Under the pieces are notes generated by a model. It was given only the letters and a program-made list of their open reading frames with translations, was not told where the DNA came from and ran no database searches. From an uncultured Pirellulales bacterium (GTDB lineage: Bacteria > Planctomycetota > Phycisphaerae > Sedimentisphaerales > Anaerobacaceae), in assembly GCA_964582985.1 (NCBI GenBank), contig CAZOUM010000024.1:1-40022 (forward strand): a stretch of 40,022 nucleotides of DNA. The letters run 5' to 3'. The first letter of the stretch is position 1, and each line of letters opens with the position of its first letter. This document shows, piece after piece, positions 16,683-40,022 of this stretch. A program made the position numbers and the translations under genes.

Positions 16683-16749
16683 AAAACTTTCCTCATCAAT
16701 TGCCAGGGATTCCGTTTGTCGACACCTCGACAAATTGACCCCCACCCCT

Positions 16750-19387: not shown

Positions 19388-19822
19388 ATGAAACTCTCTA
19401 CCAGAACCAGATACGGAATAAGAGCCACATTGGAATTGGCCAGAAACTACGGCAAGGGCCCCCTACAGATCAAGACCATTGCAAGGCAACAAGATATCTC
19501 CGGCAAATATCTCGAACAATTAATGGCCATATTAAAATCGGCAGGACTCGTCACAAGTATTAGAGGCGCCAAAGGAGGCTATCTTCTTGCCAGGCCCCCG
19601 AATCACATTAAACTTAGCGATGTCTTTAATTGCCTCGAAGGACCTGTGACTACTGTCGAATGTATAGAAAACGAAAGTTATTGTACACGAGTCCACGATT
19701 GCGCCGCCAGGCAAGTCTGGACGCAGGTCCAGGAAGCCATTACAAATGTCTTGCAATCAATAACGTTACAGGATTTAGTTGACAGGGCAAAAGACAAGCG
19801 GGCCTTGGATTACCAAATATAA
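19388..19822 (+). CDS. Rrf2-family transcriptional regulator (CymR/IscR-like)
   Basis: MKLSTRTRYGIRATLELA..GPLQIKTIARQQDISGKYLEQLMAILKSAGLVTSIRGAKGGYLLAR is an Rrf2 HTH. Three clustered Cys (C92, C101, C107) match Fe-S-liganding Rrf2 members. It sits directly upstream of cysK, as cymR does in Firmicutes. Confidence 0.85.
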   Translation: MKLSTRTRYGIRATLELARNYGKGPLQIKTIARQQDISGKYLEQLMAILKSAGLVTSIRGAKGGYLLARPPNHIKLSDVFNCLEGPVTTVECIENESYCTRVHDCAARQVWTQVQEAITNVLQSITLQDLVDRAKDKRALDYQI

Positions 19823-19837
19823 ATCGAAGGAGAAATT

Positions 19838-20758: not shown

Positions 20759-20788
20759 CAGTTTTTTCCCTCTGCAAAAGGTGCAAAG

Positions 20789-21721: not shown

Positions 21722-21767
21722 GGAAACAAAGAACTCACAACCTTTGCCTTTTTACCTCCTTTTCAGG

Positions 21768-22694: not shown

Positions 22695-22898
22695 CAATGA
22701 CAAAGACTGAAGAAAATGCGGTTGGCATCGTCCAGACAAAAGCCATACGGGTAGTCAGCCGAATAAGCCTTTGGGGCTGGTGTGCGGTCTGGCCTGATGC
22801 ATTACAGCCGTGCGGTCGCAGGAAAACGGTTTCACCCATCATTTTCGGCACCAGTTGTCTGGGCAATGTCTATTAAAATAGAATTGAAAGGTGAAAAA

Positions 22899-23933: not shown

Positions 23934-24095
23934 ACCGCAGAAGAAGCAACTTTTCTCTCAGGTTAGAATCCCGTTGAGGTTGTCGATAACAAGGTAAGGA
24001 TTCATCCGGTAGAATAAGGGCAAGAAAAGTCACTTGATAGGATGGTTGAAATTTTACCGTCAAAACAGTAATGGTCATTGCAAGGCTTGCCAAGT

Positions 24096-24137
24096 CCCGC
24101 ACCAATTAGGCGTGAGCCTAAGCACAATTGGTGCGGG
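24096..24137 (+). promoter_or_regulatory. perfect 12-bp inverted repeat CCCGCACCAATT-N18-AATTGGTGCGGG upstream of nifU
   Basis: Exact reverse-complement arms at 24096-24107 and 24126-24137, 93 nt before the nifU ATG. It may be an operator or a terminator/processing stem. No U-tract follows. Confidence 0.4.
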
Positions 24138-24229
24138 ATGGCAATCTCACACGTTATGCTTTATACTGTTTAGCGCCGTCTGCAAGCCGATTTCGAACAG
24201 GCGCTAAAGGCAAGTCAGAGGTAAAGAAT

Positions 24230-25111
24230 ATGTGGGAATACACGGAAAAATTAAAAGAGCACTTTTTCAACCCCCGAAACGTCGGCGAAATCGAAGACCC
24301 GGATGGCACCGGAGAAGTCGGCTCATTGGCCTGCGGCGACGCCCTGAAGCTGACCTTCAAACTCGATGCCAACGGCAGAATCAAAGATGCAAAGTTCAAA
24401 ACCTTCGGCTGCGCCAGCGCAATAGCAACATCATCGGTACTGACCGAAATGATAAAAGGAAAAACAATAGACGAAGCCGCAAAGGTAACCAACAAAGACA
24501 TCGCCGACTACCTCGGCGGTTTGCCCGAACAGAAAATGCACTGCTCCGTTATGGGAAGAGAAGCCCTCGAAGCCGCCATTGAAAATTACCGTACCGGCGG
24601 CAGGAAAAAACGCGAACTTGAAGGCAAGGTCATCTGCACCTGCTTCGGCGTCACTGAAAACGAAATCGAGAGAGTAATAAGTGAAAACGACCTTACAACC
24701 GTCGAGCAGGTCACCAACTACTGCAAGGCTGGCGGAGGCTGCGGAGGATGCCAGGGCGAAATCGAAAAAATATTGGAAAAGGTGCAGGGAGACAAAGCAA
24801 AAGCTGCGGCTGCATCCGTACCTCCAAAAGCCGGCAAACTAACCAATATTAAAAAAATACAATTGATTCAGCAGACAATAAATGAGCAAATCAGACCCGC
24901 CCTGCGCGCTCACGGCGGCAACATCGAGCTCATCGACGTCGAAGCAAACAAAGTCATCGTCGCATTCAGAGGTATGTGCGCTCAGTGCAAACTGGCAGAA
25001 TATACAATGAAAGACGTGGTCGAAGCTAAGCTAAGAGAATTTGTCAGCCATGAGCTTTTCGTCGAAGAGGACAAGGACTCAACGCAGCAGCCACACAATC
25101 ACAGAGGATAA
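24230..25111 (+). CDS. nifU: NifU-type Fe-S cluster assembly scaffold (IscU-like N-domain + BFD-like [2Fe-2S] domain + Nfu C-domain)
   Basis: IscU motifs are LACGDALKL, FKTFGCASAIA and KMHCSVMG. The central domain carries C..C...CGGC (CTCFGV..CKAGGGCGGCQ). The C-terminal Nfu domain has GMCAQC. Start is the ATG at 24230, not the ORF-track TTG at 24128. Confidence 0.9.
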   Translation: MWEYTEKLKEHFFNPRNVGEIEDPDGTGEVGSLACGDALKLTFKLDANGRIKDAKFKTFGCASAIATSSVLTEMIKGKTIDEAAKVTNKDIADYLGGLPEQKMHCSVMGREALEAAIENYRTGGRKKRELEGKVICTCFGVTENEIERVISENDLTTVEQVTNYCKAGGGCGGCQGEIEKILEKVQGDKAKAAAASVPPKAGKLTNIKKIQLIQQTINEQIRPALRAHGGNIELIDVEANKVIVAFRGMCAQCKLAEYTMKDVVEAKLREFVSHELFVEEDKDSTQQPHNHRG

Positions 25112-25114
25112 GCA

Positions 25115-26272
25115 ATGAAAACCATATACTTTGACAACAACGCCACAACAAAAGTCGCAGAGCAAGTGCTCGAAGAAATAAAGCCCTACTTCTGCGACCT
25201 CTACGGCAATCCTTCGAGCATGCACACCTTCGGCGGACAAATAGGCGCCAAAATCCGCAACGCCCGCGAACAGATTACCGCCCTGCTCGGCTGCGAACCC
25301 AGCGAAATCATTTTCACCGCAGGCGGCACAGAAAGTGACAACACTGCAATTATGGGCACCCTGACTGCCAAACCAAACAAAAGAAAAATCATAACCACCC
25401 GCGTTGAGCACCCCGCCGTCCTCACCACCTGCCGCGAACTGGAAAACCACGGCTACACGGTCGTAGAACTGCCAGTAGACAAACAGGGCCAACTCGCTCT
25501 GGACGAACTCGAAGAGCAAATAGACGACGACACCGCCCTCGTCACGATTATGTACGCCAACAACGAAACCGGCGTCGTGTTCCCAATCGAAAAAATCGCC
25601 GAGCTGGCTACCGACAAAGGCGTCATCTTCCACACCGACGCCGTCCAGGCCATAGGAAAGATTCCGCTGAACCTCTCAAAAAGCAATATCGATTTGCTAA
25701 GTCTCTCAGGCCACAAGCTGCACGCACCGAAGGGAGTAGGTGCCTTATATGTTAAGAAAGGGACCCGCCTCTCTCCATATATGTTAGGCGGACATCAGGA
25801 AGCAGGCCGAAGGGCCGGAACAGAAAATGTCCCCGGAATAATCGGCCTCGGAAAAGCCTGCGAACTCGCCGCAAAAAATATCGAAGAGGAAAACCAGCGA
25901 GTGAAAACTCTGCGCGATAAACTCGAAAATGCCCTACTCGAAAAATGCCCCGGCAGCAGTCTCAACGGCGGCAAACAAAACCGCCTGCCCAACACCACCA
26001 ACATCAGCTTCGAGTACATCGAGGGCGAAGCGATTCTGCTCATGCTCGACAAATTCGGTATCTGCGCCAGCAGCGGCTCCGCCTGTACCTCCGGCTCACT
26101 CGAACCCTCCCACGTATTGCGGACAATGGGCGTACCCTTCACCGCCGCCCACGGCTCAATTCGATTCAGCCTGAGCCGGTACAACACCGAAGAAGAAGTC
26201 GACTATTGCCTCGAAAAAATGCCCGAAATCGTAAACAAACTCCGCGAACTCTCACCATTCGTGGCCACGTAG
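25115..26272 (+). CDS. nifS: cysteine desulfurase (class I, NifS/IscS-like)
   Basis: PLP-lysine motif SLSGHKLHAPKG. Catalytic Cys loop SSGSACTSGS. Length 385 aa. Starts 3 nt after the nifU stop. Confidence 0.9.
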   Translation: MKTIYFDNNATTKVAEQVLEEIKPYFCDLYGNPSSMHTFGGQIGAKIRNAREQITALLGCEPSEIIFTAGGTESDNTAIMGTLTAKPNKRKIITTRVEHPAVLTTCRELENHGYTVVELPVDKQGQLALDELEEQIDDDTALVTIMYANNETGVVFPIEKIAELATDKGVIFHTDAVQAIGKIPLNLSKSNIDLLSLSGHKLHAPKGVGALYVKKGTRLSPYMLGGHQEAGRRAGTENVPGIIGLGKACELAAKNIEEENQRVKTLRDKLENALLEKCPGSSLNGGKQNRLPNTTNISFEYIEGEAILLMLDKFGICASSGSACTSGSLEPSHVLRTMGVPFTAAHGSIRFSLSRYNTEEEVDYCLEKMPEIVNKLRELSPFVAT

Positions 26273-26514
26273 CTCACAGGTGCTGCACTTGCCCGGTTTC
26301 AGCATATACAATCTGCAAACAACTACTGTGACAGCGATTTTGCCGCCGATTTATTTTAGTTCCGCCGTAAGTTTCGTGCATCAGCCACTTTTCCTGATTC
26401 ACTGAACCAGCCGGCCTGAAACGTCACTTTGGCCAGGGCCTCGATAAGAAATCTTTAGCACAAAAGTTATGGACACACGTTCAAAAATCGCTATCGTATA
26501 AGCTCGAGATAGAC

Positions 26515-28677
26515 ATGAGGTTTCTGCGAAAAAAAAGTTTTGACAGGCCGAAACTGGAGACAGCATTGATAACGGAGCCGCAAAAAAACACGTTCTTTCC
26601 GATACTCGTCTCGGTCGCAATTATTGTACTATTGGGTTGGTACATACACATCTCCTGTGATTACCCCTATTATTTTATATGGGATATGGACCATATCACT
26701 TGTGTGGATACAGTGCTAATCCAAAGTGAATTGTTACCTGACCAGATATGTCACCCCAGTTCCGGAATGTATTTACTCCTGTTTTTCAGCCAGAAAATCG
26801 CCCACGCCTTCAACGCCGTGTCGGCGATAAATCTCACCGAACTCGACGCCTCACTCAACCCCCTTGCGGCAATGGCCGAACTGACGGATTTTATCAGGCT
26901 TCATTCTCCATTTTTATCGGTAGGTATCGTCCTCTTGCTGTCTGTCGCAGTGTACCTGATATTTGATATGCCTCGATGGTATCTTCTTTGCTTTATTGTT
27001 TTTCTGGGCACACAGGAGTCGCTTATCTACCATTCAAGTTTGGTAAGAAGCGAGCTTTACAGCGTTTTCTACTGGAGTGGCGCCGTTTTAGCAATCGCAA
27101 TGGCTGCTAAAACTACCAGCCCGGTCCGCAGATGCCTGTTGCTCTTGCTGACAGGCCTTCTGTTGGGGCTTTCTTTCCTGACCAAAGTACAGGCGCTGAT
27201 TTACCTTGTTGAGCTGCCCGTTCTACTAATTCTTGTGTTTTCTGTTCTAAAAAATCATCACAAACAGCATAGTCAGCACATTACACCTGCACGCGCATAT
27301 CTGATACTGGCAGTCAGCCTTGCTGACGTCATTGCTTTTCTGCTTTTGGCTATCGCTGCGTACCGGACCCCTGTGCCTCGTGGCATCCCCACCTGGGCCA
27401 CTGGTTTCGGCATTACACCAATGACAGTCCTTTTCTTTTTGGCCTTGCTTTCATTGTTTCTCTGTCAACTCTTTTTGTATCTCAGAAAAAGAGCATCCAC
27501 GCCCATTTTCAGATTCTCCGGCTTTTTTAGCCTCATCGCGGCCGGCTTTCTCCTGACCTTTGCCTTGCATTTTCTTTTTTATTCTAATCCAAGTCTGTCA
27601 CTGCGTTATATGTTGCTTGATTTCAAAATGGTTTTTCTCAGACACTCTGAAATCTTCCACCTTAAAGACCTCCCTGTTTATATCTCCAATTTCCTGTCAT
27701 ATCTGAGCTACAATCCCACGCTGTTTGTTGTTAATGTCGCCCTGAATTTGCTTCTGGTTCTGGGCTGCCGTTTTGGATTTGTCCGAATAACAAAAGGCCG
27801 GTTGGCCCTGTGCTTGATAATTACTGTTCTTGCTTTTGCAAATATCCTTATTGCGACACGGTTTATCCTCCGCGATATTCTTTGGAAGGAAGTGCTCCTT
27901 AACTTTTTGAATTTATTGTATTTTGGCTTCCTCGTAAGCAGGGCTGCTCGCTATCGTCTGGTCTTGGCCAGGGTTGGAAGCGGGTTGCTGATTGTCCTGC
28001 TTGTTGCGAATTGTATTCATAGCCGTAACATGCCCGACAGGACGGACGCCAACTTTAACCACTATGGATGGTGGCAGGACAAAGGGCTTACCAACACTTA
28101 TGGCGGCAATCAGCGCAAATATGGCCAAGTTATGCGCGAGAAGTACAACAGGACTACCACACAGGTGGCAAAGGCCAAGGCCCCCGACCACAGGCAAATC
28201 AGAAGGACGGTAGACTTTGTATTTAAAAATCAGACCGTCACACACCGCAATATTGGAATTGTTTTCACCGGTTTTCCCGCCTGGACTACTGATTTGGCCT
28301 ACAGGCTCGTTGAAGTCCCATCCGCCCTCCGCGGCGCCATCCTCGTGGATAATACTTCAGTTCCACCTGAAAAAACCGGCTTCTTCAATGAGCAATATAT
28401 CAGGCAGAATTCTGAGTACCTGGACAAATTCAAAAAGCCTTCCAGCGCTGATAAGATATCTGTCCTGACCAGACGTGATTTGAAGGTTTTCTTATTTGTC
28501 GATGCTGATGATGTCTCTTCTCTGGTGAGTGAACAGATAGTCAAGACACCTTACAAAATAGTCCTGAGAAATGCCAAGCAATCCACCCAGTTACAAGGCC
28601 TGGAGATAAAGAATTACTGCGAAATACCGCTGGAAAAAATCACGCGGAAATTCTTCTTTGTGATTCGAAAAATATAG
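26515..28677 (+). CDS. large polytopic membrane protein, possibly a GT-C-fold (ArnT/PMT-like) glycosyltransferase
   Basis: 720 aa. About 12 TM helices lie in the N-terminal 500 aa and a C-terminal soluble domain follows. The first loop carries acidic residues (WDMDHITCVD). The family assignment is tentative. Confidence 0.5.
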   Translation: MRFLRKKSFDRPKLETALITEPQKNTFFPILVSVAIIVLLGWYIHISCDYPYYFIWDMDHITCVDTVLIQSELLPDQICHPSSGMYLLLFFSQKIAHAFNAVSAINLTELDASLNPLAAMAELTDFIRLHSPFLSVGIVLLLSVAVYLIFDMPRWYLLCFIVFLGTQESLIYHSSLVRSELYSVFYWSGAVLAIAMAAKTTSPVRRCLLLLLTGLLLGLSFLTKVQALIYLVELPVLLILVFSVLKNHHKQHSQHITPARAYLILAVSLADVIAFLLLAIAAYRTPVPRGIPTWATGFGITPMTVLFFLALLSLFLCQLFLYLRKRASTPIFRFSGFFSLIAAGFLLTFALHFLFYSNPSLSLRYMLLDFKMVFLRHSEIFHLKDLPVYISNFLSYLSYNPTLFVVNVALNLLLVLGCRFGFVRITKGRLALCLIITVLAFANILIATRFILRDILWKEVLLNFLNLLYFGFLVSRAARYRLVLARVGSGLLIVLLVANCIHSRNMPDRTDANFNHYGWWQDKGLTNTYGGNQRKYGQVMREKYNRTTTQVAKAKAPDHRQIRRTVDFVFKNQTVTHRNIGIVFTGFPAWTTDLAYRLVEVPSALRGAILVDNTSVPPEKTGFFNEQYIRQNSEYLDKFKKPSSADKISVLTRRDLKVFLFVDADDVSSLVSEQIVKTPYKIVLRNAKQSTQLQGLEIKNYCEIPLEKITRKFFFVIRKI

Positions 28678-28939
28678 AGTATTCGGCACTTCTTATTATT
28701 ACGCCCTGCCGGATAAAGTGCTTGTTACGAATCCAACCAACTGCTATTGTGCTTCCTCTAACCAATAGTTCGCAAACTCGGCAAAGTCGCGCATGTTCAC
28801 TATACCGTCCGCATTGGCGTCCCACCTTTGCGCAGCTAACCATTTTGGCACGTTACCAACAAGAATGACACAATCAGCTCCCTGACTCCGCCTATGCGTA
28901 CTTCAATTATAACATTCTATCTTATATTTCAAGTGGAGC

Positions 28940-29095
28940 CCCACGGGCATAGCCCGTGGCACCTCCATCTTCGGCGGAACCCGCCGAAGCATCCGCCTAC
29001 GCTAAAGCTTCGGCGGATACCTTTTTCGCATTCATCCACGGGTAAAACCCATGGCTTTCTGCGAAGGCGGGTAAAAAAACCTATTTTTTAAAAAA
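28940..29095. other. cluster of perfect palindromes with alternative pairing potential (candidate structured RNA or REP-like element)
   Basis: CCACGGGC-ATA-GCCCGTGG (28943-28961) and CTTCGGCGG-AAC-CCGCCGAAG (28966-28986), with a third CTTCGGCGG copy near 29008-29016 able to pair alternatively with the middle arm. ATCCGCC..GGCGGAT, a second CCACGGG, and an A7/T6 tract (29073-29091) are also present. Confidence 0.35.
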
Positions 29096-29199
29096 TTTGG
29101 CCCCATCTTTTATTGTCGGCCGCCTCATCCAAAAACCCCTAAATGCCCTCAAATACACGCCGGCAACTTACCGCCGGAAATAGGTTGCGGATAGGCATC

Positions 29200-31545
29200 T
29201 TACCGTATCGCGAGTTTCGCCTGCTCAAGCCAGGTCGACGCCTTCGGCACAAGCTCAAAGCCTAAAGCAGCCAATGCAGCTTCCAGATTTTCAATGCTTT
29301 TCTCTAAAGCTTCTTTGGACCGCTCACCCTGTTCTATCGCCGTGTATATCTCATACCTCGCCGTGACAATATCGCTATAACTCAAATTGCCATAATCCGT
29401 CGTCCTGAGCATCTGCTCTAATGCCTCGTACGCTTGCCGCTCTTTCTTCAGCATATCATCAATCTTTTTCCACGCCTCAACTTTCTCACGTATAGCACGT
29501 TCGATATTATCGACGGCAGTTCCTGGACTTACCGGCAAACCACGGCCACTCGACCCGTTTTCATAGAGTTTCCGAATCTCCTCAGCAGATAAAGCCCGGT
29601 CATAGATGCGGACGTCATCGATTTTACCGTTCCAGGAACACCCATCCCAGGCCTTTCCTATCAGCGCTGTATTAGATGCATTAGAAGTCCCTTCCGAGAA
29701 TAATTTGCTGTCTTTTTCAACACTATTAACATACAGTCTCCAATCAGAGCCATCCCAGGTCATGGCAACATGATGCCAGCTTCCAACGCGGAAAGTACCT
29801 GCTGCAAACGTCAGATGACCGAGGTACATGTCATTTTGAACCGAAGCCCAGCCGCCACCGTCTCCATGTACTCTCAATCCTAATTCTCCACCAATCCAAT
29901 TATTTGCTCCTATTATGTAAGCAAAGTTCCTGCCGCCACAGGTCTCACTTAGGTCGGCAGCAAACGCCCACGCCATAAAAGTGCCTTTAGCCAGATTGTG
30001 CATTACCGTATTTCCTATGCTCACGTAATCCCCACTGCCGTCAAAATCAAGTGCGTAGTCACCTATCTGTCCAGCCACCCACTCCGGATCCCCGTTCAGC
30101 ATGCCGTCGTTATTGCCGACCGAATCGTATGCTATATCCCCCTCGCCCTCATCAAACTCCCAGTGGGCTATCGGCCCCACTCCCTCCAGGTAGAATACCT
30201 CGATTTCTTCGGCAGTCAACGCCCGGTTATAGACCTGCACATCATCGATCATGCCGTTGAAGAAATAGCCTCTACCTAAAGGGTTCTCCCTGCAGCCAAC
30301 ATAGACTTTCGACGATTTTCCCGTAACCACACCTGCTGTTGCCCCTGTGTTCTCCGGTGCTCCGTCGATGTAGAGTATTTTTGTTGAACCGTCCCTGACA
30401 GCCACGATATGGGTCCACCGGCCTTGATAACCATCATTCGACCACAAATGCTCGTCGGTTGCCCATTGTCCTGTAGGATTTGTATAGAAATCTATTCTTC
30501 CGTTGGGGTCCTGATAAACGACCCATTGCCGGCCATCGCCGCCATAGTTGTATTTGCTGACGACGTCACCGTAGCCGCCGTATGCCGAGTGAGGCCCTTG
30601 GGTGTAGAACCACGCTGCAATGGTGAAATTAGCGTCGCCGAATTCGAATTCGTCGATATCCCCAAAGTCGACGCAATCACCGTCACCATCAAAATCAAGT
30701 GCGTAGTCACCAACCTGTCCAGCCACCCACTCCGGGTCCCCGTTCAGGATACCATCGTTGTCGCCAGCCGAATCAAACGCTGTTATCCCACTGCCTTCAT
30801 CAAACTCCCAGTGAGCGACCAGACCGCCCGCGCCCTCCTGATAGAGTTGCGAAACTTCTTCGGCAGATAAAGCCCGGTTATAGACGCGCACATCATCAAT
30901 CTTCCCGTCAAAACAAATATCCTGGTAATGGCTGGTTCCGATACTTGCATTAGCACTCGAATAGGCCAAACTTCCTCCGCTTCCACTGTATGTTCCGCCA
31001 TCATCCACGCCGTTAACATACACGTCCATATCTGTCGCGCCTCTTACCACTCCAGCGACGTGATACCATGTATCCGTATCAAGTGCTCTTGTTCCTGTCT
31101 TGCTTCTTCTGTACGCTGGGCCCGAACCGTTGCCATCGCCAATACTAATTGTCGCATGACCGCTGTTGTCGATCAGCAGTGTCACTCCGTAATATATTGA
31201 CGAACTCTCATCCAGACATATAACAACGACACTATTTCGCGAAAGATTAATCCATGCCGAGAGCGTTACTGGCAGAGGCGGTTTCAAGCTGCTGTCATTG
31301 CCCAAATCAACATAGTCATCCACACCATCAAAGCCCAACGCCCCACCAATCTGACCACTTGTCCAGAGCGGACCGTTGATCAGCGTCCCGTGATTGCCAC
31401 CAACCGAATCATACGCGGTTGTTCCCGCGCCTTCGTCAAACTCCCACCAGCTAACAAGATTCGGCTCAGCCCACACAAGCCCAGAAAGGGCCAAAAGGCT
31501 CAAGACCAATGCAATTACCACACCGAAATTCGCTTTACTTGCCAT
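29200..31545 (-). CDS. secreted triple LamG/concanavalin-A-like lectin domain protein with C-terminal coiled-coil
   Basis: Signal MASKANFGVVIALVLSLLALSGLVWA. Three repeats follow the pattern (L/I)(V/A)(S/H)WWEFDEGxGxxA(Y/F)DSxGxN(H/D)GxLxNG(P/D)(L/E)W(T/V)(S/A)GQ(I/V)G(G/D)(A/Y)ALxFDGxxDxVxxG(N/D) (Laminin_G_3-like). The repeats are visible at DNA level. The last ~130 aa are heptad-rich. Confidence 0.8.
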   Translation of the reverse strand: MASKANFGVVIALVLSLLALSGLVWAEPNLVSWWEFDEGAGTTAYDSVGGNHGTLINGPLWTSGQIGGALGFDGVDDYVDLGNDSSLKPPLPVTLSAWINLSRNSVVVICLDESSSIYYGVTLLIDNSGHATISIGDGNGSGPAYRRSKTGTRALDTDTWYHVAGVVRGATDMDVYVNGVDDGGTYSGSGGSLAYSSANASIGTSHYQDICFDGKIDDVRVYNRALSAEEVSQLYQEGAGGLVAHWEFDEGSGITAFDSAGDNDGILNGDPEWVAGQVGDYALDFDGDGDCVDFGDIDEFEFGDANFTIAAWFYTQGPHSAYGGYGDVVSKYNYGGDGRQWVVYQDPNGRIDFYTNPTGQWATDEHLWSNDGYQGRWTHIVAVRDGSTKILYIDGAPENTGATAGVVTGKSSKVYVGCRENPLGRGYFFNGMIDDVQVYNRALTAEEIEVFYLEGVGPIAHWEFDEGEGDIAYDSVGNNDGMLNGDPEWVAGQIGDYALDFDGSGDYVSIGNTVMHNLAKGTFMAWAFAADLSETCGGRNFAYIIGANNWIGGELGLRVHGDGGGWASVQNDMYLGHLTFAAGTFRVGSWHHVAMTWDGSDWRLYVNSVEKDSKLFSEGTSNASNTALIGKAWDGCSWNGKIDDVRIYDRALSAEEIRKLYENGSSGRGLPVSPGTAVDNIERAIREKVEAWKKIDDMLKKERQAYEALEQMLRTTDYGNLSYSDIVTARYEIYTAIEQGERSKEALEKSIENLEAALAALGFELVPKASTWLEQAKLAIR

Positions 31546-32142
31546 TCTTCTATCCTTTCGAAAATGTATGACATTAAATTATGCCGCCATAGTCATCATA
31601 GCTAATAGACATCAGCCAGCAAATTTCGTTACGAAACTTACTTCACTTTTTGGGATTTTTTTTCGAAACTGTCGACTTAGCGTAAGCACATTCGTACCTC
31701 TCTGTAAAACTTCGCGAAACTCTCCCAATAGAGCCGGATTTTGCCACATCAGCTCTGTAACTACGTCTCCTACACTACAATTATAACATTTTTCCTCTTT
31801 TTCAAGTAAAAGAAACTATTCTATAAAAAATTTTACGTGACCTCTTATCTTCAACGAGCCTATCCAAAAACCGGCATATACCGTAAAATATCCGGCCTGA
31901 TGCACTCTGGAGAATTGTAACCAACATCGCTTAGGCTCAAAATCTCTGCAGCAATTCTGTCGATACTAAATGTAAACGAAGCTGTAGTCTCTGTGTACCT
32001 TCGGACATGGTTATCTCAGGGCAGTCCGCACACGAGAAATTGCCATTGCGTCCGACGCGAAGGAAGTTTAAAATACGCTCCCAAATGGTCGTAGTTAAGT
32101 GCCAACAACCATAAATACTTGTATTTTTTGAGTGACGGTCAG

Positions 32143-32898
32143 ATGGTCGATGATATTGCCGGCAAAGAGCGGTTATCTCACGAAAGAGAGCATGCAAAGG
32201 TTCTTCTACGTGACCCTGAAGGGATTTGGGGTTGGGCAACGCCTGCGGGTCGGATACGTGCCCAACGCCGGGCAAAACTTATAATCGAGGCGGGTAAAAT
32301 AAATGCCGGCAGCTTAACGTTGGAAATTGGTTGCGGCACAGGTGTCTTTACAGAACTTGTCACCAAGAGCGGCGCTTCCATAACCGCCTGCGAGCTATCC
32401 GAAGAACTTCTGGAACTTGCCACCAAAAAATCTTATGCTTCGAAAGTTGAATTTCTTAACCAAGACGCTGCGCAGTTGGGTCCTGAACATCACGGTCGTT
32501 ACGATGTAGTGTGGGGCAGTTCTGTCCTGCATCATCTGGACCTAACACTATTTCTTCCAAAAATGCTGCAGCTTATGAAGCCCGGTGGCTGTTTTGTCTT
32601 CGCTGAACCAAACATGATGAATCCACAGATATGGTTAGAACGTAATGTGCCTGTTATCCGCCGAATTACTGGGACAAGTCCTGATGAAACAGCTTTTTAC
32701 CGTTGGCGTCTTAAGAAATTTCTTCTTGATGAAGGATTCACTAATGTGTCCATACGACCGCATGAATTCCTCCACCCTATGATTCCCAAATTTTCTATAC
32801 GCGTGTTCCAATCGTTAAATGCGGTGCTGGAACACATCTGGCCGATTCGCGAGATTGCCGGTTCACTCCTAATCAGGGCAGAAAAACCAAATCTATAA
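32143..32898 (+). CDS. class I SAM-dependent methyltransferase
   Basis: Motif I LEIGCGTGVFTELV and the downstream VFAEPN motif. First ATG at 32143; the ORF-track start at 32119 is a TTG. Confidence 0.7.
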   Translation: MVDDIAGKERLSHEREHAKVLLRDPEGIWGWATPAGRIRAQRRAKLIIEAGKINAGSLTLEIGCGTGVFTELVTKSGASITACELSEELLELATKKSYASKVEFLNQDAAQLGPEHHGRYDVVWGSSVLHHLDLTLFLPKMLQLMKPGGCFVFAEPNMMNPQIWLERNVPVIRRITGTSPDETAFYRWRLKKFLLDEGFTNVSIRPHEFLHPMIPKFSIRVFQSLNAVLEHIWPIREIAGSLLIRAEKPNL

Positions 32899-32915
32899 GA
32901 GCAGACAGACAGTGC

Positions 32916-34340
32916 ATGATGAACAATGCTGAGACATTAGCTCAGGTTGACTGGAAGCGGCGGAAGAATCGCGGCTATTACCGTGAAGTCGACCGATGTT
33001 ACACCTCTGTCGTGCCCCAGGGCGTTCGCGTCCTCGAGCTCGGCTGTGCCACGGGAAGACTCCTCGCCGCCACTCGCCCGTCCTACGGCCTCGGAATCGA
33101 CATCGACACCCAGCAAATCGAAACCGCCAAAAAGATTCACGCCGACCACAGCGAATTAGAGTTTCGCGTTGGTGACGTCGAGGAAATGGATTTCGCCGGC
33201 ATCGAGCCTTTCGATTGTATCATCATCTCCGACGTCCTGCCGCTCTTACGTGACATTCAGAAAACGCTGGCCCGCCTGCACGCGGTTTGTATGCCGCACA
33301 CCCGGCTGATTATCACGTATCACTCCAACCTTTGGCGGCCGGTACTTGCCATAGCCACACTCCTCAGACATCGCTCGCCCGACCCGTCTTACAATTGGCT
33401 TTCCACACACGACATAGAAAACTTATTGCATCTGGCCGATTTCGAGGCCGTCACACATTCCGGCCGCACACTCTTGCCAATACGCCTGCCCGGCCTCGAC
33501 TGGATAATGAATCGCGTCCTTGCCAAGATGCCCCTGCTTAACAAATTGTGTCTGACCTGGCGAATTGTCGCCCGTCCCCGTCCCCAGGTTAGCTCCGAGA
33601 AGAAAGATTCCGATGGGCCCACAGTCTCAATCGTTATCCCAACCCGCAACGAAAAGGGCAATATCGAACCAGCCTTCACCCGCACCCCAAAAATGGGCAA
33701 GTGGACGGAACTTATTTTTGTGGATGCGCACTCCGACGACGGCACCATTGAAGAAATCAACAGGTGCACCGAAAAATACGGCCGCCAATGGCACCGCATC
33801 CTCCTGCTTCACCAAACCGCCCACGGCAAGGGACAGGCCGTCCGACAGGGCTTCGCCCAGTGTCACGGTGACATCTTGATGGTTCTCGACTCCGACCTTA
33901 CAATGCCCCCCGAGGAGCTGACAAAGTATTACAACGCCATTGTCTCCGGAAAGGGTGAGTTTATCAACGGCTGCCGGCTCGTCTACCCAATGGAAAAAAA
34001 GGCCATGCGTTTTCTTAACATGATTGGCAATTACTTTTTTGCCCGCCTCTTCACCTGGCTCCTCGAACAGAGCATAAAGGACACCCTTTGTGGAACAAAG
34101 GTCTTATGGCGCCGCGACTATCAGAGAATCGCTGCAAACAGGTCATACTTCGGCGATTTTGACCCCTTCGGTGATTTCGACCTGCTCTTTGGTGCATCCC
34201 GCCTCAACCACAAGATTATCGATTTGCCCATCCGTTACCGCGAACGCACCTACGGCCAAATAAAAATCCATCGCTGGCAGCACGGCTGGCTCCTCCTGAA
34301 AATGAGTTTAGTAGCCTTCTGCAAACTCAAACTGTCCTGA
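32916..34340 (+). CDS. fusion protein: class I SAM-methyltransferase (N-terminal) + family 2 glycosyltransferase (C-terminal, DPM1-like)
   Basis: N-terminal RVLELGCATGRLL is MT motif I. C-terminal VSIVIPTRNEKGNIE....FVDAHSDDGT....VLDSDLTMPPEE are the GT2 DxD/DSD motifs. Confidence 0.8.
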   Translation: MMNNAETLAQVDWKRRKNRGYYREVDRCYTSVVPQGVRVLELGCATGRLLAATRPSYGLGIDIDTQQIETAKKIHADHSELEFRVGDVEEMDFAGIEPFDCIIISDVLPLLRDIQKTLARLHAVCMPHTRLIITYHSNLWRPVLAIATLLRHRSPDPSYNWLSTHDIENLLHLADFEAVTHSGRTLLPIRLPGLDWIMNRVLAKMPLLNKLCLTWRIVARPRPQVSSEKKDSDGPTVSIVIPTRNEKGNIEPAFTRTPKMGKWTELIFVDAHSDDGTIEEINRCTEKYGRQWHRILLLHQTAHGKGQAVRQGFAQCHGDILMVLDSDLTMPPEELTKYYNAIVSGKGEFINGCRLVYPMEKKAMRFLNMIGNYFFARLFTWLLEQSIKDTLCGTKVLWRRDYQRIAANRSYFGDFDPFGDFDLLFGASRLNHKIIDLPIRYRERTYGQIKIHRWQHGWLLLKMSLVAFCKLKLS

Positions 34341-34465
34341 CCATACTTGTCCCGAGCGACGAGCGACGAATTTGCCTTCCTACAAATTCTTATTGCCTTT
34401 TCCCACTCTTGATGCTACTATTGTCCTAAATCTGCCTATAAAAAAGGATATCGGAAAACAGCGAA

Positions 34466-37400
34466 ATGGCAAACGTACCTATTAGAGTCATAGAGCTTGT
34501 CGAAACCTTCGACCGCAACATTGAAGCCTACAAAAATCAGCAATACAAAGAGGCACAGCTTTGTCGCGAATTTATAGACCCATTTTTTCACGCTCTCGGC
34601 TGGGATGTTGCAAATGAAAAAGGGTACGCTCCTGCCTATAAGGACGTCATACACGAAGACGCCATAAAAATAGGTGGTTACACTAAAGCTCCGGACTATT
34701 GTTTTCGCATCGGCGAGACGCGCAAGTTCTTCCTCGAAGCTAAGAAACCCTCCATCGACATAAAAGGCGACCCACACCCCGCTTACCAGTTGCGCCGTTA
34801 CGCCTGGAGTGCAAAGCTGCCACTCTCAATCCTTACCGACTTTGAGGAATTTGCCGTTTATGACTGCCAAATCCGTCCCAAACAGACCGACAAGTCTGGA
34901 ACTGCCCGAATTATGTATTACACCTATAAGGACTACATCGACAACTGGGACAAGATCGAGACCATTTTCAGCAAGGACGCAATTAAGAAAGGCTCATTCG
35001 ATAAATTCGCGGCCGCAACCAAAGGAAAACGCGGCACCGCCACTGTTGATAAAGAATTCCTCGCAGAAATCGAAAAATGGCGCGAAATGTTGGCCAGAAC
35101 CATCACTATCAAAAACATATCACTATCAAGGGATGAAATAAACTTCGCCGTCCAGCGAACCATTGACAGAATCCTGTTTTTGAGGATGTGCGAGGACAGA
35201 GGTATCGAGCGATACCAGCAACTTTTAGGCGTAACTAACGGCCGACAAATTTATCCCAGGTTATGCCAGCTTTTCAGGCAGGCCGATGCAAAATACAACT
35301 CAGGCCTGTTCCATTTTCGCCACGAAAAGGGTCGGGCCGAAGGCCCGGACGAACTTACACTAACCCTCGTTATTGATGACACCCAATTGGGATGGATTCT
35401 TCGCAGTCTCTATTATCCGGGCTGCCCCTATGAATTCTCTGTCCTTCCCGCAGAAATCCTCGGCAATGTCTATGAACAGTTTTTAGGCAAGGTTATCCGC
35501 ATAACTCCCGGCCACCAAGCCAAAATCGAAGAAAAACCCAAAGTTAAAAAAGCCGGCGGCGTTTACTACACACCAAGTTATATAGTTGACTACATCGTAA
35601 AAAACACCGTCGGCAAACTCTGCGAAGGCAAAGACCCCAAGCAAATCTCAAAACTAAAAATCCTCGACCCCGCCTGCGGCTCAGGCTCATTTCTGTTAGG
35701 TGCCTATACATATCTGCTAAACTACCATCGGGATTGGTACGTCCAGAACAATCCCAAAAAGCATACAAAACAAATATATCAGGGCAAAGGCGCCCAGTGG
35801 TTCCTCACCATCGCCGAGAAAAAAAGAATCCTCTTAAGCAACATCTTCGGCGTCGATATCGACTCCCAGGCAGTCGAAGTAACAAAACTATCCTTATTAT
35901 TAAAAGTCCTCGAAGGCGAAACCAGCGAAACCATCGGCCAAACCTATCGAATGTTCCACGAACGTGCCCTCCCCGATTTGGGCAACAATATAAAATGCGG
36001 CAATTCTCTCATCGGCCACGACTTTTTCGATGACTACCAACGTTTAGCCCCCGCACCTGTGGCGGGGGGCTCACACGAAACAACAATTCCTAACGACCTC
36101 TACCAAAAAATAAACCCCTTCGACTGGGAAGCTGAATTCCCCCAAATCTTCTCCGGCAAAAACCTCGGATTCGACGCCGTTATCGGAAATCCACCGTATA
36201 TCCGAATCCAACGAATCGGCCACGAAGAATCCGATTATCTCTTCGCCAAATATAAAACTCCAGCTAGTAAAACCGATCTCTCACAATTATTTCTTGAACG
36301 CTCTCTAATCCTTGCAAACAAAACCGCCATCATTGGTTTCATTTGTACTTCTCAATGGATAGCAACCGATTATGGGAAGAACATGCGCCGAGTATTATCT
36401 AATGGAGTACTCCATGAGATTGTTGACTTCGGTTCTCTCCCAGTTTTCCAAAAGGCAAGTACCTACCCCGCAATTTTTATTCTCAGCCCATCACGGGCTA
36501 AATCTTTGCGTATCAAAAAGATCACGTCACCCAACCAACTTAACCTTTCTAAAATCGAACAGATATGTCCCCGGCAAATCAATCTCGAAAACCTCTCAGA
36601 AAAACCATGGAATCTAGCCAAACTGGATATTCCTCAAACCCTCGACAGTCATGGTGTTGTATGGGAACCACTGCAGGCTTTTGGCAATACTTACATAGGT
36701 GTCTTGACTGGAATGGATGCTGCCTTCGTTCTACCAAAATCAGACACCAATCGACTGGGCCTTGAAGATGAAATCCTACTTCCATATGCCTATAAAGGCA
36801 AAGAGGTTGTTCGCTACCAAACAGTAACCCCCAGTTCAGTCGTCATCTACCCTTATACTCAAGCCCCTGATGGTTCCCCTGTATTGATTCCAGAGAATGA
36901 CTTGCGGCGCCGTTGTCCGTACATTTTTAAATATCTCGTCGCTCAGAAAAGTAAATTGTGCCAACGAAAAGATAGCCGGCGCCTGTATGCTACCGGTTCT
37001 CACTGGTATCGCCACTTACGGCCCGGTTCATTCAAGTATATCATGCCAAAAAAACTGATCATCAAGGGAATTGACAAACGGACGGTTGTAGGTCTTCTGG
37101 ATCAACAGACTTGCTTTAATGGCGCGAACTGTCCAGCTATAATCCTCGATAAGGACCAACGTCATTTGGAATTATACATATTGGGAATTATGAATTCAAA
37201 ACTCGTTTCATTTCACCTACGCTCGATTTGCCCCTCCAAGCTAAGCGGTTACACCCGCTTCAATGCAAAAAGCATTAATGGTACACCTATTCGCACAATT
37301 GATTTTGACAGTCCGCAAGACAAAGCCAGACATGACAAAATGGTAAAGCTGGTGGAGCGAATGTTGGATTTGAACAAGAAATTGGCCGCCGCAAAAGTCC

Positions 37401-37522
37401 CTGCCGAAAAAACCCGAATCCAACGCCAAATCAACACCACCGACTCTGCAATCGACAAACTCGTTTATGAATTGTATGACCTAACAAAAGAAGAAATAGC
37501 AATCGTGGAGGGCAAAAAATAA
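34466..37522 (+). CDS. Type IIG restriction-modification enzyme: N-terminal PD-(D/E)xK endonuclease + N6-adenine DNA methyltransferase (Eco57I/TaqII-like), 1018 aa
   Basis: The N-terminus has the HsdR_N-like motif ..FIDPFFHALGWDV.. and APDYCFRIGETRKFFLEAKKP (PD..ExK). MTase motif I is ILDPACGSGSFLLG and motif IV is VIGNPPYIRIQR (NPPY, gamma-class, Eco57I-like). C-terminal tail ..IDKLVYELYDLTKEEIAIVEGKK. About 48% GC, lower than the backbone. Confidence 0.85.
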   Translation: MANVPIRVIELVETFDRNIEAYKNQQYKEAQLCREFIDPFFHALGWDVANEKGYAPAYKDVIHEDAIKIGGYTKAPDYCFRIGETRKFFLEAKKPSIDIKGDPHPAYQLRRYAWSAKLPLSILTDFEEFAVYDCQIRPKQTDKSGTARIMYYTYKDYIDNWDKIETIFSKDAIKKGSFDKFAAATKGKRGTATVDKEFLAEIEKWREMLARTITIKNISLSRDEINFAVQRTIDRILFLRMCEDRGIERYQQLLGVTNGRQIYPRLCQLFRQADAKYNSGLFHFRHEKGRAEGPDELTLTLVIDDTQLGWILRSLYYPGCPYEFSVLPAEILGNVYEQFLGKVIRITPGHQAKIEEKPKVKKAGGVYYTPSYIVDYIVKNTVGKLCEGKDPKQISKLKILDPACGSGSFLLGAYTYLLNYHRDWYVQNNPKKHTKQIYQGKGAQWFLTIAEKKRILLSNIFGVDIDSQAVEVTKLSLLLKVLEGETSETIGQTYRMFHERALPDLGNNIKCGNSLIGHDFFDDYQRLAPAPVAGGSHETTIPNDLYQKINPFDWEAEFPQIFSGKNLGFDAVIGNPPYIRIQRIGHEESDYLFAKYKTPASKTDLSQLFLERSLILANKTAIIGFICTSQWIATDYGKNMRRVLSNGVLHEIVDFGSLPVFQKASTYPAIFILSPSRAKSLRIKKITSPNQLNLSKIEQICPRQINLENLSEKPWNLAKLDIPQTLDSHGVVWEPLQAFGNTYIGVLTGMDAAFVLPKSDTNRLGLEDEILLPYAYKGKEVVRYQTVTPSSVVIYPYTQAPDGSPVLIPENDLRRRCPYIFKYLVAQKSKLCQRKDSRRLYATGSHWYRHLRPGSFKYIMPKKLIIKGIDKRTVVGLLDQQTCFNGANCPAIILDKDQRHLELYILGIMNSKLVSFHLRSICPSKLSGYTRFNAKSINGTPIRTIDFDSPQDKARHDKMVKLVERMLDLNKKLAAAKVPAEKTRIQRQINTTDSAIDKLVYELYDLTKEEIAIVEGKK

Positions 37523-38223
37523 TGATCGCCAACCTAACGGAAAACTTGGCTTTAATCGCGGCTATTGCCGCCTTGGGTGCATGGTGGGTTTCATGGCGGG
37601 AAGCTCACCGCAACAATACGGTTATTCTGAAGCTAAAGAGGTTTAGCTCATCGTTTACTCAGGATCGAGCAGGGGCATCCTACAAACTGGAAGTCTGCAT
37701 CGTCAACCGGGGAATTCAATTGCAAAATATCTTAATGTCCCTGTGGTTTCATGGTCAGGGGAGGTCGGGCAACGTTTCTATACCTATCCCACCGTCTGAA
37801 TATAGCAAAGGCGTATCCTCGACTTTTCTCAGAGGTACGACCGCAAGCTTCCTGCTGTCTGCATCCGACAAAAAGACCTCCAATTTTCTTTTAATACTTC
37901 GCGATATCAAGGAACAGCGACCCGTCATCAACCTATACAATAATTCGTTCTGGGCCTGTTCATTCCCCATTTACAGCCGATGGGACCGGCTCAAAAAGTT
38001 ATGGAACAGATTGTCGTTTAAATTCAGTTTCAACCGTCGTGTGGGTGATGGCTGCAATGGCAAAGGGGTGTTTAAATCCTACCAACTACCCTACTTCGAG
38101 ATACGATCAGAGAAATTGCAGTTCTTCCTAAATGGACTCTCCCAAAGCAATATTGACGATGCACAAACAACTTGCCGCCACAATGTCGAAGGTCCTGTAG
38201 AATCTCCTCCAGCGACAAATTGA
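37522..38223 (+). CDS. hypothetical N-terminally membrane-anchored protein (233 aa), translationally coupled to the RM gene
   Basis: The start codon overlaps the RM stop codon (TAATG). N-terminal TM segment LALIAAIAALGAWWVSW. No recognisable domain. Confidence 0.55.
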   Translation: MIANLTENLALIAAIAALGAWWVSWREAHRNNTVILKLKRFSSSFTQDRAGASYKLEVCIVNRGIQLQNILMSLWFHGQGRSGNVSIPIPPSEYSKGVSSTFLRGTTASFLLSASDKKTSNFLLILRDIKEQRPVINLYNNSFWACSFPIYSRWDRLKKLWNRLSFKFSFNRRVGDGCNGKGVFKSYQLPYFEIRSEKLQFFLNGLSQSNIDDAQTTCRHNVEGPVESPPATN

Positions 38224-38320
38224 CCAGATGGTCTACAAACTCTACGGCCTGACCGACGAAGAAATCGCCATCGTAGAAGGTGAGGATAAACAATAAGCCC
38301 GAAATCAAAGGAGTGAAAAA

Positions 38321-39238
38321 ATGAAGAGACTGCTATATCTTATTTTTGTTCTGTTTTTGGTTAGTTGTGCTTCTATAGAAGAGGCAGAAAAAGCCGACAA
38401 CAGCTACCGCCCAAAGCAGGCAACAAATAAAATCATTCACAGAGCATGGAAGGGAGTAGCAATGCCACCCATAGATCCAATACATTTGTCGACCACACTT
38501 ATTAGCAGATATCTTGATAAAGAATCCAAAGGTAATGCAACAGGTTTTTTCTTTCAGAGCGAACAGGGCTCCATATATCTTGTGACTAATAAACACGTTA
38601 TTTACGGGGATAATTTTTATAAGGATGAGGCGGTACCGGAAATAGATAAAATAGATATAACTCTTCACGTCAACAGGAATGATCTATCACAAAACAAGAC
38701 AATAACAATTGGTCTGTTTAAGAAGGAAAATAGGCTATGGAGGGAGCACTCCAGGAAAGATATTGACATAGTATGTATACCTCTTGACTTGGACAGAAAT
38801 AAGTATCTTTTCGCTTTGGCGGACGAAAGTCTTTTAGATGCTTCCAATATAAAAATAGGTTTTGAGAAAATATTCGTGATGGGTTACCCATACGGCTGGC
38901 ATGATTCCCTGCACAATCTCCCTATTACAAGAATTGGCCATCTATCAAGCCCATTTGGAGTGCCTTTTCACGGATACCCTTTTATGCTTGGAGATGTGGA
39001 AACACACCCAGGAATGAGCGGTAGTCCTGTATTTATGCATCTCGTTGATTATGTAACTGTCGATAAGGACAAATCAACTCGGCACATGGGTCAGTCTAAA
39101 ATTATTTTACTTGGAGTTTTTTCTGGTCAGCCTTTATGGGAAATAAAAAATAAGAAGACGAACGAAACCATTACGATCCCTCACTCATTAAGTATAATTT
39201 GGTTTGGTGACTTAATAAAAGAGATAATTGGGGAATAA
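38321..39238 (+). CDS. trypsin-like (S1/chymotrypsin-fold) serine peptidase lipoprotein
   Basis: RBS AAAGGAG 38306-38312. Lipobox LFLVSCAS. The catalytic triad context is LVTNKHVI (His), DIDIVCIPLD (Asp) and GMSGSPVF (Ser, GDSGGP-like). About 36% GC. Confidence 0.65.
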   Translation: MKRLLYLIFVLFLVSCASIEEAEKADNSYRPKQATNKIIHRAWKGVAMPPIDPIHLSTTLISRYLDKESKGNATGFFFQSEQGSIYLVTNKHVIYGDNFYKDEAVPEIDKIDITLHVNRNDLSQNKTITIGLFKKENRLWREHSRKDIDIVCIPLDLDRNKYLFALADESLLDASNIKIGFEKIFVMGYPYGWHDSLHNLPITRIGHLSSPFGVPFHGYPFMLGDVETHPGMSGSPVFMHLVDYVTVDKDKSTRHMGQSKIILLGVFSGQPLWEIKNKKTNETITIPHSLSIIWFGDLIKEIIGE

Positions 39239-39265
39239 AGAAACAAACGGTTTGGGAGAATTGAT

Positions 39266-39625
39266 GTGAAATCAACTATAATCATATCGATTATATGGCT
39301 GGTTTTTACTTTTATCTTTGTGAAGCTTGGACGCTCACACTGGGAGCAATCAAAACGGGTGATACCAAAACTTGAAGTTAAAAAGCTTTTAGGTGGTGGC
39401 AGTGATATTACAAAGGGCGGGGTATCTATAGAAAAACCTTTTCAAGATTTCGCAAATGAGTTTAACAACAATTATCTTGAACAGCAGAATAAGTCAAATT
39501 TTGAAGCAAACCGCAATGCAGCTTTCGGCTATTTTGTTGCTTCACTTACTTCCTTGTTTGCGGTGGTGCTTGAATGGGTATCCTATATATCTAAGCGAAA
39601 AAGCCGAATATTACAAAAAAACTGA
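39266..39625 (+). CDS. small two-TM membrane protein (119 aa), hypothetical
   Basis: N-terminal TM IIISIIWLVFTFIFV and C-terminal TM FGYFVASLTSLFAVVLEWV. AT-rich. Copy 3 of the RM tail module follows immediately. Confidence 0.4.
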   Translation: MKSTIIISIIWLVFTFIFVKLGRSHWEQSKRVIPKLEVKKLLGGGSDITKGGVSIEKPFQDFANEFNNNYLEQQNKSNFEANRNAAFGYFVASLTSLFAVVLEWVSYISKRKSRILQKN

Positions 39626-39821
39626 CCAGATGGTCTACAAACTCTACGACCTATCCGAAGAAGAAAGAGATATTGTGAAAGGACATATTTAAGTAGAATG
39701 ACGAAGCAATCACCGCCCACGACGGCTGGCCAGTAAAATAGGGCCCAAAAAAATCCTTGTTCTTTGCTGCTCAAATCCACAAAAGAGTCTCATTTCCCAC
39801 TTGATATTTGATAGTAGTTGA

Positions 39822-39845
39822 GTTAAGTATGTACGCACATACTTA
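39822..39845. promoter_or_regulatory. perfect 10-bp inverted repeat TTAAGTATGT-ACGC-ACATACTTAA (operator-like palindrome)
   Basis: Exact palindrome in the AT-rich intergenic region at the window end. Function unknown. Confidence 0.25.
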
Positions 39846-40022
39846 ATTACTTAATCACTTTATATGGACCTGCGAAATTTATGCCTAAGGTACTTGTGCC
39901 CAAGGTATCCGTGGTTAATAAATTCTTTCAGTCAGCTTCAAAATAGTTGCATTAAACAAAATGCGACTGTGGACGCAGGCAAAAATTTGTGACAAAGCTG
40001 GCTTTGGGAGCAAAATTTGCCG

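Follow-up and report, generated by a model that had tools for sequence, protein, structure and literature searches.

Type I hsdS genes recombine at the conserved regions that flank their target-recognition domains, and Llp of phage T5 and Ltp of TP-J34 are lipoproteins of superinfection exclusion. A membrane-bound nuclease, SNIPE, acts at DNA injection (PMC13190303). The closest described relative of one of the genes treated here is PDC-S45, a PADLOC candidate of the "guilt-by-embedding" kind (Payne et al. 2024, 10.1101/2024.01.29.577857); the embedding preprint mined Hma, BREX, DISARM and Type I systems, and PDC-S45 is not named in its text or in the part of its supplements that was available (10.1101/2024.01.29.577857). 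A literature search found no experimental validation of PDC-S45, which appears there only as a PADLOC match in Sinorhizobium prophages. How, then, might a trypsin-like protease matching PDC-S45 have come to stand, together with two small genes for putative membrane proteins, behind a single-gene Type IIG restriction-modification (RM) enzyme in an uncultured Pirellulales bacterium (GCA_964582985.1)? The window analyzed here is positions 1 to 40,022 of contig CAZOUM010000024.1, and the genes in question occupy its last few kilobases. Comparison with related loci shows that this array was assembled by recombination within the sequence encoding the C-terminal tail of Type IIG enzymes, with RM genes replaced or lost and their downstream cargo retained.

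Results

The RM enzyme matches the PADLOC model REase_MTase_IIG over its full length (2.4e-235) and contains the Pfam domains HSDR_N, Eco57I, N6_Mtase and TaqI_C, so that a nuclease N-terminus, a gamma-class N6-adenine methyltransferase of the Eco57I type and a TaqI_C-like specificity domain are combined in a single polypeptide, as in Type IIG enzymes. Behind it lie the three open reading frames (ORFs) of the original prediction, which was made from the bare sequence; all are on the plus strand, and each has homologues under evident constraint, 37 for the 233-residue protein (p233), 180 for the protease and 11 for the 119-residue protein (p119). The proposed TAATG overlap is present, the RM ORF ending and the p233 ORF starting at 37522 with one base shared, and Shine-Dalgarno-like runs precede the protease (aaaggagtg) and p119 (gggaga), in agreement with the ribosome-binding sites assigned to them. 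The cargo had been taken as coupled to the RM enzyme as a whole, and as AT-rich against a backbone of about 55% GC. Only the p233 gene is coupled, and the backbone (positions 1-34465) measures 49.7%; the protease (38.1%) and p119 (36.7%) are AT-rich as described, but the p233 gene (46.7%) has the same composition as the RM gene (45.8%).

A conserved motif marks the C-terminal tail of Type IIG enzymes (VYxLYxLTxEEIxIVEG, then a stop), and the window holds three plus-strand copies of it. Tail a is live and forms the end of the RM gene itself, at about 37449-37522, reading IDKLVYELYDLTKEEIAIVEGKK and stop. Dead tail b is broken by an in-frame stop and reads MHKQLAATMSKVL, stop, NLLQRQIDQMVYKLYGLTDEEIAIVEGEDKQ, stop, with the NLLQRQIDQMVYKLYGLTDEEIAIVEGEDKQ part lying directly after the p233 stop codon, and dead tail c, directly after the p119 stop codon, reads TDQMVYKLYDLSEEERDIVKGHI and stop. 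A repeat finder returned the copies as one three-member family (D1) of 64 nt, the outer two being 67% and 81% identical to the middle one (tail c has the 81%, over 64 nt), and in tblastn RM residues 966-1017 align with copy b at 46% identity, interrupted by the stop. When the motif was sought in six frames across about 466 kb of related loci, only genuine RM ends and similar remnants matched, and because it is otherwise confined to such places, three copies within 2.2 kb are not a product of chance. Both the p233 and the p119 ORF terminate at the same out-of-frame TGA within a dead tail: the last 25 or so codons of the former are an out-of-frame reading through dead tail b, and the last few codons of the latter an out-of-frame reading into dead tail c. 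The family-conserved part of p233 extends to about residue 205 (near 38145), exactly where dead tail b begins (alignment A2), and the C-terminal residues of the p119 family vary by frame (alignment A3). Among related loci, dead tail c shares 88% identity with the live tail in L014 and 83% with the dead tail behind the protease in L013. In locus L038, a T5orf172-ResIII ORF is followed, one codon past its stop and in a different frame, by a tail-like peptide (FIYKLYSLTPEEIKIVENKK and stop, 8102-8146), which is either a frameshifted end or a further dead tail.

The DNA of the window changes its affinity inside dead tail b. In blastn, window 37406-38278 matches L062 7861-8754 at 80% across the live tail, the p233 gene and the dead tail, and window 38217-39274 matches L014 4068-5118 at 83% across tail, spacer and protease; in a three-way alignment the window is L062-like up to about 38217 and L014-like from about 38225. 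The left half of dead tail b accordingly resembles the dead tail that follows p233 in L062, and its right half the live Type IIG tail of L014. In the latter locus an intact 1272-residue Type IIG gene (DUF7149, DUF7814, Eco57I, TaqI_C) ends in IDQMVYKLYGLTNEEIAIVEGEDKQ and stop about 40 nt upstream of a protease 75% identical to that of the window. Since both blastn and alignment place the switch within it, dead tail b represents a homologous-exchange joint between a Type IIG-a gene with p233 and its dead tail on one side, and the tail of a Type IIG-b gene with the protease on the other.

The same pieces can be followed through the related loci. A decayed tail (LVCDFCSLTDEETAIVEG) precedes the protease in L013 and a dead tail (AVYKLCGLTEEEIRIVESMQN and stop) follows it, the p119 gene being absent, and in L015 SLNKEEIKIVEGE and stop lies directly upstream of the protease; both loci have lost the upstream RM gene and kept the protease. 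L014 retains the first 13 or so nucleotides of the p119 region (the start codon and two codons) and then resumes past the position that dead tail c occupies in the window, about 437 bp having been cleanly deleted; just behind the deletion joint, at L014 5150-5400, lies what we take, by eye from the translation, to be a C-terminal fragment resembling an IS3-family transposase. Among loci with p233, L062 has the RM gene, p233 and a dead tail with the same internal stop as in the window, in L073 the p233 gene continues in frame into a truncated tail ending EDEIEIVENE and stop, and in L077-79 p233 is followed by a dead tail (ILYNLTKEEIKIVEESTK and stop) and then by different cargo, a 221-residue tail-anchored membrane protein. 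This last passenger (L078 2365-3030, also in L077 and L079) has a C-terminal membrane anchor, is unannotated and has no PADLOC match. RM orthologues at 51-61% identity likewise have the p233 gene downstream. The L062 orthologue aligns with the window enzyme over residues 1-680 (61%) and 904-1018 (56%) and not between them, and this unaligned block of about 680-904 (window 36500-37180) suggests a swapped specificity block, with recombination at its conserved flanks. The full arrangement of the window recurs on at least six metagenomic contigs, which at 99.9-100% identity represent the same population; among the surveyed loci, p233 occurs together with the protease or p119 at none outside those contigs.

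Homologues of p233 number 37 with identity down to 44%, and an exhaustive search by profile gave 266 representative clusters with E values of 1e-3 or less. The original prediction could name no family for any of the three proteins, which holds for p233 (no match in Pfam, NCBIfam, PADLOC or PHROG) and for p119, but not for the protease. In the AlphaFold model of p233, with a predicted local distance difference test score (pLDDT) of 81, an N-terminal helix (residues 2-31) is followed by a beta-sandwich (36-187) and a C-terminal helix; structure searches returned generic Ig-like sandwiches only, and neither these nor the profile searches detected an enzymatic domain. Its description as a transmembrane protein agrees with the long N-terminal helix of the model, but the hydrophobic stretch of about 17 residues falls below the standard 19-residue hydropathy threshold. 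A basic cluster (REAHRNN..KLKR) follows this stretch, and by the positive-inside rule the sandwich should therefore be cytoplasmic, making p233 probably a membrane-tethered protein with a cytoplasmic sandwich domain. Longer relatives have extra N-terminal hydrophobic segments, apparently further membrane helices, in which no Pfam domain was detected. Contexts were compared across 11 non-redundant lineages (Table 1). The stop/start overlap with a Type IIG gene is seen in the window, L073/74 and L077-79, and in L062 a gap of 23 nt was called. One p233 homologue is embedded in the strict sense, between Type III Mod and Res (L066/L067), whereas the RM system of the window is a single gene and its cargo is bounded not by genes but by two tails, one live and one dead. 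In L068 the p233 homologue is preceded by uncharacterized proteins of 465 and 69 residues (5667-7266), and in L069 only the last 20 or so codons of an L068-type upstream gene remain before p233 (about 5700-5840), repeating the pattern of the RM tails, in which the partner is gone and a 3' scrap is retained.

The protease matches Pfam Trypsin_2 (36.4 bits, cutoff 27.6), PADLOC PDC-S45 (1e-32, residues 46-283 on positions 9-250 of a 293-position profile, in a library without curated cutoffs) and phrog_7688 (5e-48); further matches are to LmuA (weak, 7.6e-6) and to RT-Protease_XI (9e-8, Type III-embedded protease relative). It was proposed to be an S1-like protease with a lipobox, and so it appears: the catalytic triad His92, Asp149 and Ser233 is invariant in 16 sequences (alignment A1), and the pattern [LVI][ASTVI][GAS]C is present in the window (MKRLLYLIFVLFLVSC, a predicted lipoprotein) and conserved in four orthologues, as FLVSC with Cys16 in the window, LLAGC in L013, FLAGC in L014 and FLVGC in L015. 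A DegP/HtrA-like protease of periplasmic quality control, the identity that would have spoken against a defense role, is ruled out by the absence of a PDZ domain, for which there is no Pfam match at E values up to 0.1, the protein ending about 70 residues past the catalytic serine. The 180 homologues mostly measure about 260 residues and begin at Met48 of the window protein; those that do consequently lack a signal peptide, and the lipoprotein signal is a gain of the window clade. A Shine-Dalgarno-like purine run (ggaagggag and similar) is kept before Met48 (window 38459-38464) in the window, L013, L014 and L015, which makes a second, cytoplasmic product possible beside the exported form, and in L014 the long form has no in-frame canonical start. 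The family is patchily distributed through Eubacteriales, Neomarinimicrobiota and several archaeal phyla, and the surveyed loci represent 32 non-redundant lineages at 90% identity, 33 with the window. Homologues embedded between Type III Mod and Res are found at four non-redundant loci (Table 1); they make up a single clade with mutual identities of 85-87%, and our search of the literature found nothing relevant on proteases embedded in Type III systems. The predicted association with RM and defense genes is borne out, the p233 and protease families recurring in or beside RM genes and AbiU/AIPR-like and SieB-like genes lying a few kilobases downstream of the window's array; their homologues are thus not limited to housekeeping contexts.

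All 11 homologues of p119 are close. The protein has two hydrophobic helices in both sequence and model, as the original prediction of a small two-transmembrane protein had it, the model being a low-confidence helical hairpin (pLDDT 68), and it has no accepted match in Pfam, NCBIfam, PADLOC or PHROGs; an AI-2E_transport match was below threshold and was discarded. Its gene is cleanly deleted in L014, absent from L013 and found alone in L072, and 2 of the 11 homologues lie on contigs equal in length to a contig with a protease homologue, which suggests that they share that contig. We infer that p119 is a clade-restricted membrane partner of the lipoprotein form of the protease, one that can be lost.

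The locus is chromosomal. Upstream lie genes for a cysteine synthase-like protein, NadA, NifU, NifS, glycosyltransferases, methyltransferases and a lectin-like protein; the interval from the Fe-S cluster genes to the methyltransferases holds a 720-residue ORF with no Pfam match (26515-28677) and, on the minus strand, a 781-residue protein with three Laminin_G_3 (concanavalin-like) repeats (29200-31545). The methyltransferase-glycosyltransferase fusion that immediately precedes the RM gene (32916-34466) is truncated in L002, of the same population (4799-6146, 347 versus 474 residues), a structural variation at the left border of the RM gene. Past dead tail c comes repeat-rich intergenic DNA, continuing beyond the window end, whose length differs among contigs of the population: a 68-nt element has one copy in the window (39783-39850) and three in strain variant L002 (11468-11535, 12076-12143 and 12328-12395), and a 99-nt element is duplicated in L001 (11107-11205 and 11435-11533). 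Two tandem paralogous ORFs for small membrane proteins follow, of 81 hydrophobic residues each and without family match (L001 12031-12276 and 12441-12686), adjoined by tRNA-Leu(CAA) on the minus strand (L001 12723-12808). After proB comes a defense islet (L001 14481-18354) that encodes an AIPR-domain protein (PADLOC AbiU, 9e-31), three small uncharacterized ORFs and a SieB-domain protein. A tRNA-bounded island was considered, tRNA-Leu being about 2 kb downstream, and was set aside, with no tRNA repeat and no integrase found.

Table 1. Features of the array in the window, and genomic contexts of p233 and protease homologues in related loci
Feature or context	Position in window, or locus	Strand	Basis
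Type IIG RM enzyme, 1018 aa	34466-37522	+	PADLOC REase_MTase_IIG, Pfam matches
p233, 233 aa	37522-38223	+	Start on RM stop codon; unannotated family
Dead tail b, vestigial Type IIG C-terminus	38150-38296	+	tblastn, tail motif, DNA comparison
S1-type (Trypsin_2) serine protease, 305 aa	38321-39238	+	Pfam and PADLOC PDC-S45
p119, 119 aa, GTG start, two-helix membrane protein	39266-39625	+	Homologues and model
Dead tail c, vestigial Type IIG C-terminus	39619-39692	+	Direct-repeat family D1 and tail motif
p233 directly after Type IIG/Eco57I-like gene	Window, L062, L073, L077-79		
p233 between Type III Mod and Res, with an overlap at each end	L066/67		
p233 beside DarT, SNF2 helicase and PDC-S14	L064		
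p233 after MNT-HEPN pair	L065		
p233 near HicAB and T5orf172-like gene	L076		
p233 in operons of unannotated genes	L068, L075		
p233 between fabH and ugd	L069-71		
Protease between Type III Mod and Res, tight operons	L007, L031, L032/33, L036		
Protease after Eco57I/TaqI_C genes	L014, L039		
Protease with RM tails or tail remnants	Window, L013, L015		
Protease adjoining RES toxin gene and two Type ISP enzyme genes	L041		
Protease upstream of Eco57I methylase and T5orf172-ResIII gene	L038		
Protease by GmrSD	L015, L016		
Protease by STAND NTPase	L009		
Protease by AbiU2-like HEPN	L013		
Protease by metabolic genes; other loci on short contigs	L019 (aminotransferase), L009 (DeoC)		

Discussion

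We favor, with a probability of roughly 0.6, the reading that two separately acquired candidate defense cassettes are stacked behind the Type IIG gene as autonomous accessory genes, and that they do not constitute one module. The first unit consists of the Type IIG-a gene, p233 and a dead tail, an arrangement conserved in other genomes, and the second of the tail of another Type IIG gene, the lipoprotein protease, p119 and dead tail c. Homologous recombination inside the conserved tail-coding sequence joined the two, replacing the body of an earlier RM gene and leaving a chimeric dead tail behind; the split in composition, 46-47% against 37-38% GC, supports separate origins. Repeated events of this kind would exchange RM genes while downstream passengers pile up, the tail serving as a homology arm much as the conserved regions of Type I hsdS genes do. 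The p233 protein would be made together with the RM enzyme through the stop/start overlap and may act on the cytoplasmic side of the membrane. The protease would be a catalytically competent single-gene effector of the PDC-S45 type, in the window clade exported and lipid-anchored, possibly with p119 at the envelope. Both p233 and the protease may ride in RM operons for the sake of co-expression and co-transfer, without being obligate RM subunits, and perhaps work as PrrC-like back-ups (PMC12707154) or, like SNIPE, at the site of entry (PMC13190303).

Several observations weigh against this interpretation. The first junctions, p233 with its dead tail and p119 with dead tail c, are one ancestral event each, so that a general rule of accretion rests on a handful of lineages. 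About two-thirds of the non-redundant protease loci have no recognizable RM neighbor (many of these contigs are short), and p233 stands without any RM gene in L064, L065, L068, L069-71, L075 and L076. Promoter and terminator scans gave counts equal to chance, and such signals do not define the transcription units. An exported lipoprotein is also atypical of defense effectors, and the protease might serve the envelope in some way that has nothing to do with phage.

Might p233 instead be a dedicated partner of RM enzymes, either a membrane tether or regulator of restriction at the point of DNA entry, or a PrrC-like guard released when a phage inhibits the RM system? We regard this as possible but doubtful. 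The stop/start arrangement with the upstream RM-type gene is conserved in five lineages (L062, with its called gap, among them) and involves RM enzymes as unrelated as Type IIG and Type III, the Type III case including an overlap with the downstream res gene as well; the charge distribution places the sandwich in the cytoplasm, the lack of an enzymatic domain would suit such a role, and there are precedents for RM guards in PrrC and PARIS (PMC12707154) and for membrane-localized cleavage of entering DNA in SNIPE (PMC13190303). However, about half of the sampled p233 contexts have no RM gene at all. The ABC-ATPase and anticodon-nuclease domains of PrrC are absent from p233, the protease and p119. 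A wider form of the idea, in which the Type IIG/Eco57I-like tail is a general recombinase-free docking site with a dead-tail record and p233 an unrecognized RM partner family, co-translated with Type IIG and Type III enzymes and tethering restriction at DNA entry or guarding the RM system, seems to us improbable as it stands.

It is also unlikely that the cargo has no role in defense and consists of envelope, housekeeping or decaying passengers in a variable region beside the RM gene. Such passengers might well include a protease that is exported and lipid-anchored in the window clade, that persists in L013 and L015 after RM loss, that has some homologues beside metabolic genes (aminotransferase, DeoC) and that belongs to a family with candidate status only, PDC-S45 being unvalidated (10.1101/2024.01.29.577857). 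They would hardly be expected to recur, as both families do, inside RM operons of different types, to be scattered through bacteria and archaea, to have phage homologues, as the protease does (phrog_7688), to keep company with GmrSD, STAND, AbiU2, RES, DarTG and PDC-S14, or to maintain a catalytic triad and a lipobox under constraint.

It is very unlikely that a site-specific element inserts cassettes at RM 3' ends, in the manner of integrons or of islands that restore tRNA 3' ends, with the dead tails as its target-site duplications or attachment sites. Direct repeats do lie on both sides of each cargo block, and the complete tail upstream of the cargo always restores the RM frame, but the tail copies are just 67-81% identical and each is closer to a different RM lineage than to its neighbor; target-site duplication is rejected on these grounds, since the repeats have diverged too far and differ in ancestry. 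The genes called in L001 and L002 (about 20 kb around the locus) include no integrase or recombinase, and window scans of ten ORFs (14810-31545) and six genes (32119-39625) gave none either; an integron would call for an adjacent recombinase and near-identical attachment sites, and neither was found here. The nearby tRNA-Leu has no repeat, and ordinary homologous exchange explains the junction. We give hardly any credence to the original prediction of one co-evolved, RM-dependent abortive-infection module made up of the RM enzyme, p233, protease and p119: the four genes do share a strand, short gaps, own ribosome-binding sites and an arrangement repeated on at least six contigs, but those contigs are one population, p233 meets the protease or p119 at no other locus, the units lie 9 GC points apart in composition, recombination has made a chimera of the place where they meet, and each has other partners elsewhere.

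By its profile matches the protease belongs to a candidate family already described, p233 adds a new candidate to the known RM-embedded defense kind, and the grammar of dead tails is a modest but useful new detail, on which a literature search found nothing relevant. A dead RM tail is a sequence mark by which captured cargo can be recognized and successive RM replacements dated, and if the tail-scar rule is true genome-wide, it would permit cheap mining of defense candidates and a study of the rate of RM turnover. With 266 representative clusters and conserved translational coupling to two unrelated RM types, p233 offers a definite target for cloning, both alongside its RM gene and in its absence. 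The locus also provides a variant of a candidate defense protease that is predicted to be exported, a location that would be unusual for the action of an effector of this sort.

In comparison with known systems, p233 and the protease resemble PrrC of the EcoprrI Type IC locus as accessory genes inside or against an RM operon and co-expressed with it, and by analogy could provide a back-up triggered by anti-restriction (PMC12707154); unlike PrrC, both families also occur without an RM gene. The Lamassu LmuA protease variants and the class XI RT-Protease are linked by weak profile matches to their trypsin-like effector domains, the former to the window protease and the latter to its Type III-embedded relative, but a sensor partner, whether SMC-like, a reverse transcriptase or another, is absent here, and the window protein is predicted to be exported. 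Llp, Ltp and SNIPE have no sequence or fold relationship to the window proteins; they are anchored at the envelope or membrane and act at phage entry, which by analogy may be possible for the protease with p119, and for p233. The window protease matches the PDC-S45 model and is likewise a single-gene trypsin-like protein embedded in or adjoining RM systems; what differs is the added N-terminal lipoprotein signal and the two-helix membrane neighbor of the window clade, and an embedding in Type III and Type IIG systems. The logic of embedding, which has been applied to multi-gene systems, extends here to a single-gene RM system. As in hsdS genes, a short conserved RM coding segment would serve as a homology arm between diverged alleles, and the RM orthologues here show the swapped block 680-904. 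Unlike in hsdS genes, entire downstream genes move with the exchanged DNA and dead C-termini stay behind, which builds an array of cassettes instead of a new specificity.

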